Source of the DNA: Escherichia coli
Lineage (GTDB): Bacteria > Pseudomonadota > Gammaproteobacteria > Enterobacterales > Enterobacteriaceae
Reading direction: 5' to 3' (one strand)
DNA: 64,000 nt
Assembly: GCF_016026235.1 (NCBI RefSeq)
Contig: NZ_CP065613.1
Below are positions 60,801 through 63,800 of this stretch, in pieces. The first letter of the stretch is position 1. Each line of letters starts with the position of its first letter. The position numbers were made by a program.

Positions 60801-63800
60801 CGGTAATGTCTCCAGCACCTGCACGACCGCTTTTGCCCAGATGGCAAACTCCCGTCTGACATCACTGGCCGGAATGAGTTGTGCCGTTTCCTGTTCGAAC
60901 TTAAGACGCTCACGTTCAGACTGATACCAGGCTTTGCGCTCATGCGCGTCCATTTCGCCTTCTGCAACCGGCGGTGGTAATGCCAGAAATGCCGACACAA
61001 TATCAACCACCCGATAAAGCTTGAGGTTGCTTTCATGCCCCCTGCAACGGGTAGATTTTGCAGCCTTGCCGCAGCAGTCTGGCGATGTACACCTGACAGT
61101 GCCGCCAGTTGACTGATATTCAGCGTCAGATTTTTTAACTCTCGATCCATACCCGCTCCAGAATGTTTTAAACATGCATCTTGCGAACAACTTTAGGCAA
61201 ACGGTGTTAGTGATGAACAAAAAACAATCAAAACCGACAGCACAAAAATAAAACCACTGTAATATCAATACATTACAGTAGTGGTGATGACGAATGAAAT
61301 TTCAAAAACTAGCCTTTTTCCGCGCCGCTCCCGCCCCGTGGCAGGCCACCCCACCGGGAGGACCCGTCAGCCTGACAGCCATGACGAACGTCTGATACAG
61401 CGCCCTGCATGAATGACATCGGGATAATCCAGAAAGGAATAGCATCGTACCCACAAGAATCAGTGTAAGTGTCCTGTTTCTTCCACCCCCGCACAGGACT
61501 GGCGAGCATGAGGGACAAACCCGCGAACCATAAACGCGGTAAAAACCCGGTGTGCATCGTTTTTGATTATTCCCGCACACTCGCGCAGAAGGAGTTCCCC
61601 GTCGGGCTACGGTCATGGTTAATGCGGGAATACAGCGACGATACAGCGCATGATGTGTCAGGCCTGAATACCTTTATCCGTTAAAAGGGATATCAGTTAA
61701 GTTATCCCGTGTAGGGTATAAGCCATTATCAAGCCCACCCGTAGATGGACTTTGTAATGGATAGCTGTTGCTCAGTTCTCGTAATGCTTTGATTTTTCCG
61801 ATAACGCAGTTTTGCGTTTGCCATCAGCACGCGATATCGAGAGTCAACTGCAGTTGCTCGCGCCAGTACTCGACATTTGCTTCAATAACCGGCTTATCCC
61901 ATCGCCAGCGAGCCATCTCTCTTGCCCCATTGCTGGCTTTTGATTTCCGGTCATCGCGAATGCGACATGCTTGCTCATATTTCTGCTGCTCAGTCAGTTC
62001 ACCGCGAAGCAGACTATCAATGTGCAGGTCGCACCATACGGAGAATTTCGGATCGCACCATCTTGCAAAGGCAACTGATAACTTTGGATGCTGCCATGTT
62101 CCGCCGCCCCTGTCCTTTCGTGCCTTGCTTGTTTTTACATACCCGGAATCACGGGTATGTAGAATTTTCGATGGTTCACCTGAATAAACCTCATCCAGAG
62201 CTCTAACGTATTCGAGAGTTTCAGCGTTGGACAACCAGTGATCCAGACGCTTCCCGAAACGTTTTGCAATATCAGTGGCATTAATCCAGCCATCAGTATT
62301 GAAGCGGATAGGTTCGCCTTTGTAATTCAGTGGAACGATATTCATAGCGTCTTACCTTTTAGAAAGATGAGCCTGTTCGCACAGAAAAGCCGCCCCGAGA
62401 TGGTCGCCACCATATACGGCAGTTCTCAGGCTCAGCTTTCTGAAAGACTCGGGATTGTTACGCGCTGCGATGCGCGGTTTACTGCGGACATATAAAAGCC
62501 CCGCAAGTGCGAGGCTCATTAAATTGACTTTGTGATTTGCAAAAAAATTATTTCAGGCATTGCGTCCTGATGTATTCCTGCAGGTAGTTAACCTGCGCGG
62601 TTATCCTGTCGATTCCACTTCGGAGACGGTAATAATTGAGTTCAGCATCTGCTGTAAGTCCTGGGCTTTCTCCATAGCCCATGCTGCTGGCTCCGGTCGT
62701 TGACTTTGCACAGGTGGCGGCGACTTGCAGGCGCTTACGACCAGCAGAAACATCAGCACGGAGACTTTCGATAGTCGCGTTAGCATCAGCAAGCTCCTTT
62801 GTGTATCTGGCGTCGAGTTCTGCTACATCACGTTGACGCTTCTGCATATCAGAGATGATGGATGTGGCCTTATCGCGCTGCTCTTTGTAGGTAATGGCGT
62901 TATCACGGTAATGATTAACAGCCCATGACAGGCAGACGATGATGCAGATAACCAGAGCGGAGATAATCGCGGTGACTCTGCTCATTGATCTATCCCCCAA
63001 CAGGCTAATGCGCTTTCCTGGTCACGACGAATAACCTGTCCATAGCAGTTATTTGAACGTATGCGGCAATCGCGCCCAACATCTTTTATCCACCAGCGAA
63101 TCGCCTCGCATGCGCCCTTACGATCACCGGCATTCAGCCGCTTATAAAACGTCGACGGGAAACACTTACCGGGGCCAATGTTATAGGGGCAAAATGACGC
63201 TATACCCGCTTTTTGTGGTTCGGTCAGTGGTACTTTAATATTGCGCTCCACCCATGCCAGCGCCTTATCACGTTCAATGGCGTTAACCTGGTCGCATTTT
63301 TCCTTCGACAGTTTCATACCGGGAAAAACGGGTTTACCATCCACCATCGTGGCACCCCGACAGATGGTCCAGATGCCGGAACCATCGCGGTATGCCGTAG
63401 TGTGGTTACCTTCTTTTTCATCCAGAAACTGGTCGAGAATATCAGGCGCAGGCGCACCGATAGCAATCAGTGCCAGAACGGCAGCCGACAGGCCATATCT
63501 GATTTTTACGTTCATGGATATTTATCAGGATTTATCGGCTTCAAATCCCCGGATATGTTAAATCTTACCTCGCCAGTGATGGGCACTGGCGGGAGGAGGA
63601 TGTCAATCTGATAAACACAGAGGTGACTACGGATTACACAAATCTACCAAAACAAACTTTTGCTGATTTAATCGCACTCAGGCAAGCAGTCGTAGCTCTA
63701 ATCAACTTGTTGCCGGAGAAGGAAAAGGAATTAGTTAAAGCGCTTCTTAACAGAACTGCCGCCGATTTTTCATCATATCCACTGACAGATGACCTTGCGG

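Follow-up and report, generated by a model that had tools for sequence, protein, structure and literature searches.

Among described systems, the closest in organisation to the gene considered here is that of lambda gpNu1 (PHROG 57, Pfam Phage_Nu1), a protein of 181 aa with an N-terminal helix-turn-helix and a C-terminal tail, whose gene comes first after cos, directly preceding a gpA-type gene and overlapping it. Closest in sequence are the corresponding genes of mEp460, Ayreon, phi458 and vB_EcoS-569R4, together with that for the prophage 'DUF1441 family protein' WP_000373425.1, all of which have 99-99.8% nucleotide identity to our locus over the whole gene; those that were aligned possess a run of six G residues (G6) and a single ORF, whereas our locus has five (G5) and two frames, although its product, once repaired, is this same protein of 164 aa. 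Lambdoid phages are known for programmed -1 frameshifting at their gpG/gpGT tail chaperones, while bacterial transcriptional slippage becomes productive at runs of about 8-9 bases or more. A precedent of a technical kind is provided by passages of the Polypolish paper (bioRxiv 10.1101/2021.10.14.464465, PMC8812927), which describe the residual errors of long-read assemblies as mostly errors of homopolymer length that are often left in repeats after short-read polishing, and attribute this persistence to unreliable short-read alignment in repeats. The long-read repeat errors treated in those passages resemble what we find here (one-base homopolymer changes, confinement to a repeat, clean unique flanks and apparently frameshifted genes), the likeness being one of pattern.

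The window analysed here is a stretch of 64,000 nucleotides of Escherichia coli contig NZ_CP065613.1, and it contains a prophage of the Gifsy-2/mEp460-like lambdoid type which carries ipaH and resides in a Shigella-type chromosome. In this prophage the gene for the small terminase subunit is split, and the relevant features of the region are as follows:

60657..61150, minus strand: DUF1441 / Nu1-like terminase small subunit gene with a one-base frameshift (intact form 164 aa, 495 nt)
61037..61150, minus strand: authentic N-terminal coding part, codons 1-38, with a putative helix-turn-helix (LNISQLAALSGVHRQTAAARLQ), followed out of frame to a stop at 60758
61038..61042, minus strand: homopolymer run at the frame change, plus-strand C5 or coding-strand G5; six bases in the aligned homologues
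60657..61036, minus strand: authentic C-terminal coding part in the other frame, HESNLKLY...EEELQQEE and stop, with an acidic tail
58555..60657, minus strand: gpA-type terminase large subunit gene, 700 aa, intact (GpA_ATPase 9e-72, GpA_nuclease 7e-84)
61824..63515: lysozyme, Rz and KilA-N genes, upstream of the small terminase gene
38108..39859, plus strand: ipaH-family E3 ubiquitin ligase gene with LRR_TTSS and NEL domains, at the prophage end and adjoining dinI, yecD and aspS

From its ATG at 61150, the minus-strand ORF encodes MDRELKNLTLNISQLAALSGVHRQTAAARLQNLPVAGG before it continues into unrelated out-of-frame sequence as far as the stop at 60758, giving 130 aa in total. The remainder of the small terminase, HESNLKLYRVVD...EEELQQEE, lies in the -1/+2 frame, which contains ...HESNLKLYRVVDIVSAFLALPPPVAEGEMDAHERKAWYQ...AGADDEEELQQEE followed by a stop and ends at 60657. 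Our analysis confirms the claim of the first-pass annotation that two frames of the gene meet at a coding-strand G5 run, and that one extra G in this run restores a single ORF, which is continuous over 164 aa. The annotation was correct as to the run itself, yet the coordinates that it gave (61037..61041) are displaced by one base, as the plus-strand CCCCC occupies 61038..61042 and position 61037 is a G. The G5 run also opens an ATG-initiated ORF of 172 aa in the C-terminal frame (60657..61175, minus strand, beginning MFKTFWSGYGSRV...), and this ORF may be reported by gene callers as a protein without a helix-turn-helix.

With one G added, the protein matches Pfam DUF1441 (PF07278) at profile positions 1-146 of 147 (E=2.7e-41, 141.4 bits, against a curated cut-off of 35.1 bits), and the PHROGs family phrog_141 'terminase small subunit' over residues 1-164 (7.2e-74), so that its membership of both families extends over the entire protein. 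In the unrepaired state, by comparison, the 130-aa ORF matches DUF1441 at residues 10-40 only, with 21.6 bits, which is below the 35.1-bit cut-off. Chance juxtaposition of two ORFs is, on the evidence of these comparisons, not the origin of the split, because the repaired protein matches DUF1441 end to end and is common to more than 1000 contigs, where a protein 100% identical to it is present. The identification as a small terminase, also proposed in the first-pass annotation, is borne out by the match to PHROG 141, by weak but reciprocal profile matches involving lambda Nu1 and by the position of the gene directly upstream of the gpA-type large terminase gene. The repaired protein matches phrog_57 with 8e-10 over residues 5-160, and lambda Nu1, which is a member of phrog_57 (1e-76), matches phrog_141 with 5.6e-8 over residues 2-150. 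A possible distant homology to lambda Nu1 is consequently supported, at the level of sequence profiles, in both directions. Pairwise BLASTP between the repaired protein and lambda Nu1 returned no similarity, a PDB sequence search of the small terminase family matched no solved structure, an NCBIfam search of the repaired protein gave nothing useful, and three incidental mentions were all that the literature on DUF1441 yielded.

Like the gene for gpNu1, the small terminase gene is located upstream of the gpA-type gene and after the lysis genes and cos region, as expected of a Nu1-type small subunit, and the large-terminase ATG overlaps the small-subunit stop (TAATG). A search upstream of the small terminase gene for the lambda-type cosN 12-mer gave no meaningful match (cos sequences vary between phages). 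Downstream of the large terminase gene there follow a W-like gene, a portal gene and a ClpP/capsid fusion gene. The window protein is also similar to gpNu1 in size (164 aa against 181 aa) and in possessing a C-terminal tail and a putative N-terminal helix-turn-helix, suggested by a motif of this type at residues 10-31 (AlphaFold, run on the single sequence, gives a poor model there, with a mean pLDDT of 65.9 and values below 50 at residues 22-35). However, neither its Pfam family (DUF1441) nor its PHROG (141) is that of gpNu1, and the binding of cosB and recruitment of the large subunit performed by gpNu1 are only predicted for the DUF1441 family. The label of small terminase subunit therefore appears reasonable on position and profile, with a biochemical role that is predicted.

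The ipaH-family gene marks the window as a Shigella/EIEC-type chromosome, and its exact protein is found on only 7 contigs, which belong mostly to NCTC and FDA-ARGOS assemblies. The backbone of the window (yebS through ruvABC, aspS and dinI) is ~99% identical to E. coli, and relative to E. coli CX21 it contains an IS1 copy at ~8000..8767, between pphA and yebY.

A 71-mer centred on the G5 run was used as a query against 885 E. coli complete genomes and 8 phage records. The exact G5 form was present in one of the 885 genomes and in none of the 8 phage records, and every match listed was one base longer. The sole genome with the exact G5 form is CRE10, for which RefSeq flags the gene as 'frameshifted' and in which a frameshifted capsid gene is located a few kb away. 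Over 531 nt, the missing G is the sole difference between the window and E. coli AR436; AR436, mEp460 and 569R4 all have G6 when aligned, and each homologue that was aligned is a single ORF. Among GTDB representative genomes, scanned with a G5/G6 37-mer, only two MAG contigs were recovered, both with the extra base. G6 is thus, as far as these sequences go, the normal state of the run. At the level of proteins, the exact 130-aa N-terminal ORF was not found in a collection of 15 billion proteins, nor were exact matches to the truncated capsid and tape-measure products, and the exact 172-aa sequence that depends on G5 was present on only two short Logan contigs. The 98-aa C-terminal piece that starts at MDAHERK is a separate called gene on 326 contigs elsewhere, although we reject this count as a measure of G5 frequency, given that some of these cases arise by IS1 insertion.

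An informative comparison is offered by the NCTC contig UGFA01000002.1, which possesses both the exact large-terminase allele of the window and its exact IpaH protein. Two stretches of this contig, L032 and L026, are contiguous, and in it the prophage adjoins ruvABC, aspS, dinI and ipaH. The shared alleles and the contiguity of L032 and L026 indicate that this second assembly contains the prophage of the window at an identical chromosomal position, and all SNPs that separate L026 from other relatives are common to it and the window. Window positions 28108..49858 differ from L032 by 1 mismatch and 1 gap in 21,752 nt, positions 62287..48559 differ from L026 by 1 mismatch and 5 gaps in 13,734 nt, and positions 64000..62284 differ from L026 by 1 further mismatch. 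As one gap appears in both the L032 and L026 comparisons there are five in total, and the overall differences between the window and the NCTC contig over ~36 kb amount to 2 substitutions, one IS600 and five one-base deletions. The IS600, the only structural difference found over these ~36 kb, is located between the Rz and KilA-N genes in L026 (7107..8369) and is absent from the window (62284..62287). All five gaps are deletions of one base in the window, in runs of 5-6 bases:

61038..61042: deletion 1, small terminase gene, plus-strand C5 against C6 in the reference
56197..56200, minus strand: deletion 2, ClpP-protease/major-capsid fusion gene (54838..56896), plus-strand T4 against T5 in the reference
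55559..55563, minus strand: deletion 3, ClpP/capsid fusion gene, C5 against C6 in the reference
52060..52063, minus strand: deletion 4, gpG-like tail assembly chaperone gene, C4 against C5 in the reference
48818..48821, minus strand: deletion 5, 3'-terminal part of the tape measure gene (48621..51661), C4 against C5 in the reference

Re-insertion of one base per site yields ORFs of 164, 663, 129 and 1013 aa (663 aa applies when the first ATG is taken as the start, against 686 aa for the L026 gene call, and the ORF of 129 aa is called as 128 aa). The NCTC assembly has the longer run at all five sites, including G6 in the small terminase gene, so the homopolymer changes of the window are absent from an independent assembly of a near-identical strain; in other lineages with a prophage at the same site, the run at 48818 is the longer one wherever it is covered.

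All five deletions fall within 48559..61649, a head and tail block of ~13 kb of which the NCTC genome has two copies, L025 and L026, that are 99.9% identical. Comparison with UGFA01 over 20 kb of backbone and prophage outside the block, and with E. coli CX21 over 30 kb of backbone, revealed no homopolymer indel of one base. Counting runs of at least 5 bases, 5 of 67 are affected in the block and 0 of 222 outside it (Fisher p=6e-4), and at the rate of the block the probability of zero events across the other 51 kb is ~4e-9. An even spread of errors across the window was considered and rejected, as the ~51 kb outside the repeat are without a one-base homopolymer indel; outside the repeat, the assembly is good. 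The changes are consequently confined to repeated sequence while unique sequence is clean, the repeat being one that was seen in the NCTC genome (the window's own genome extends beyond the window). Within the affected block there are five indels for one substitution (5:1). In E. coli mutation-accumulation work indels account for ~10-20% of spontaneous changes, and with such a proportion five or more indels among 6 differences would arise with a probability of 5.5e-5 to 1.6e-3.

Taken together, these patterns suggest that the split in the small terminase gene is quite probably an artefact of assembly, in which a G6 run was called as G5, and not a product of biology. Under this explanation, five homopolymers would have been under-called in a 13-kb block of which the near-identical NCTC genome has at least two copies (99.9% identity), and the errors would have survived given that consensus calling and short-read polishing could not place reads uniquely in such a repeat. 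We infer this cause from a pattern whose elements (a difference of one base that is restricted to the window, five deletions clustered in the repeat and no such change in the remainder) were observed directly. A point against it is the presence of the G5-dependent 172-aa ORF on a few Logan contigs, and among real frameshift mutations, too, the loss of one base from a G/C run is the commonest kind. Moreover, real lesions could have been masked in the NCTC consensus, which would then be in error, by reads of an intact paralogous copy.

The main alternative hypothesis is that one G was truly, and very recently, lost by replication slippage, leaving a real small-terminase pseudogene in a defective, ipaH-carrying prophage that is decaying, and that this prophage would be unable to recognise cos or package DNA; we regard both the loss and its consequence as unlikely. 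Prophage decay is common in Shigella-type genomes, as are defective prophages in Shigella, and the host genome here is of that type (with IS1 and ipaH, and IS600 in relatives). Furthermore, frameshifts affect only prophage genes that are dispensable to the host while the backbone is clean, as relaxed selection predicts, and G5 also occurs in L013 and L016, two of the stretches compared, in which the neighbouring genes are otherwise intact. However, a near-identical strain shows no differences in ~20 kb of unique sequence and yet has all five sites intact, and an excess of five indels over 1-2 substitutions, with every indel a deletion located in an intragenomic repeat, would be very unlikely under either wild-type or mismatch-repair-deficient mutation spectra. 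The part of the prophage at 38-48.5 kb, which lies outside the block duplicated in the NCTC genome, should be equally free of selection, yet it contains no indel, and the frameshifts within the block are not accompanied by nonsense mutations, larger deletions or IS insertions. Neither the occurrence of the lesion in related strains nor a normal neutral spectrum, either of which would characterise a genuine pseudogene, was found, and the closest strain is without all five lesions. A more elaborate version, which we consider very improbable, is that the five deletions are genuine and arose rapidly in one clone, such that short G/C runs in packaging, capsid and tail genes act as slippage-prone switches. 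Were this so, particle production by the duplicated ipaH-carrying prophage would be rapidly silenced while the effector gene is kept, and the recurrence of the sites in further Shigella-type assemblies (L021, L022 and L025) would reflect mutational hot spots instead of technical error.

A further possibility, to which we attach next to no credence, is that -1 ribosomal frameshifting or transcriptional slippage at the G run produces a full-length small terminase, possibly together with a truncated product consisting of the helix-turn-helix only. The shift needed is indeed -1 and is located on a homopolymer, but the split architecture is not conserved (the exact G5 form occurs in 1 of 885 E. coli genomes, and homologues that were aligned or gene-called are all in one frame, the aligned phage records included). 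The junction reads GCA GGG GGC, and its heptamer A GGG GGC does not have the X-XXY-YYZ form, with a first position that bars P-site re-pairing; G5 is far below the run length for productive transcriptional slippage; and the same type of lesion is found at four other sites of the block (twice in the capsid fusion gene, and in the tail chaperone and tape measure genes). The comparative norm of G6 and the lack of a slippery heptamer at the junction therefore exclude programmed frameshifting, as well as transcriptional slippage.

Assembly error as the probable cause may also be considered in the light of the same sites in other long-read assemblies, in some of which they are shortened as well. L008, L012 and L014 contain 17-24 indels per 6.3 kb, nearly all of which are one-base homopolymer deletions, the change from G6 to G5 included, and this is a raw long-read error profile; L009 contains four indels. 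In L021 both the small-terminase site and the capsid G6 site are shortened, the capsid site (55559..55563) is likewise shortened in L022, and L025 has the A5 site in common with the window. L013 and L016 have G5 without any other indel in the 3.7 kb compared, and so a genuine G5 allele may exist somewhere.

The comparison also shows that these homopolymers are mis-called in several public Shigella-type genomes assembled from long reads. If read literally, the sequence describes a prophage with five inactivated morphogenesis genes, which would inflate pseudogene counts and lead to calls of a 'defective prophage'. If the lesion is instead true, it is a routine slippage pseudogene in a cryptic prophage, and neither reading is novel or opens a new biological question.

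Several irregularities of a related kind were encountered in public records. Of the two copies of the block in UGFA01000002.1, L025 differs from L026 by six one-base homopolymer indels, five of which are insertions in A/T runs, and these are probably errors as well. In L025 the capsid and tape measure genes are both split, the latter apparently through a length difference of ~80 nt between the copies. In the mEp460 record (JQ182728.1, 1..60) the canonical ATG of the small terminase gene reads ACG and the A6 run that follows it is A5, as a consequence of which the annotated ORF starts upstream in another frame; the A5 constitutes a second homopolymer oddity in the small terminase gene of a public phage record. 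Finally, three PHROGs families of 'unknown function' are in fact pieces of the small terminase (phrog_5710, phrog_21782 and phrog_6039, covering residues 1-99, 66-157 and 110-164), from which it appears that split calls of this gene are frequent in phage and prophage records.
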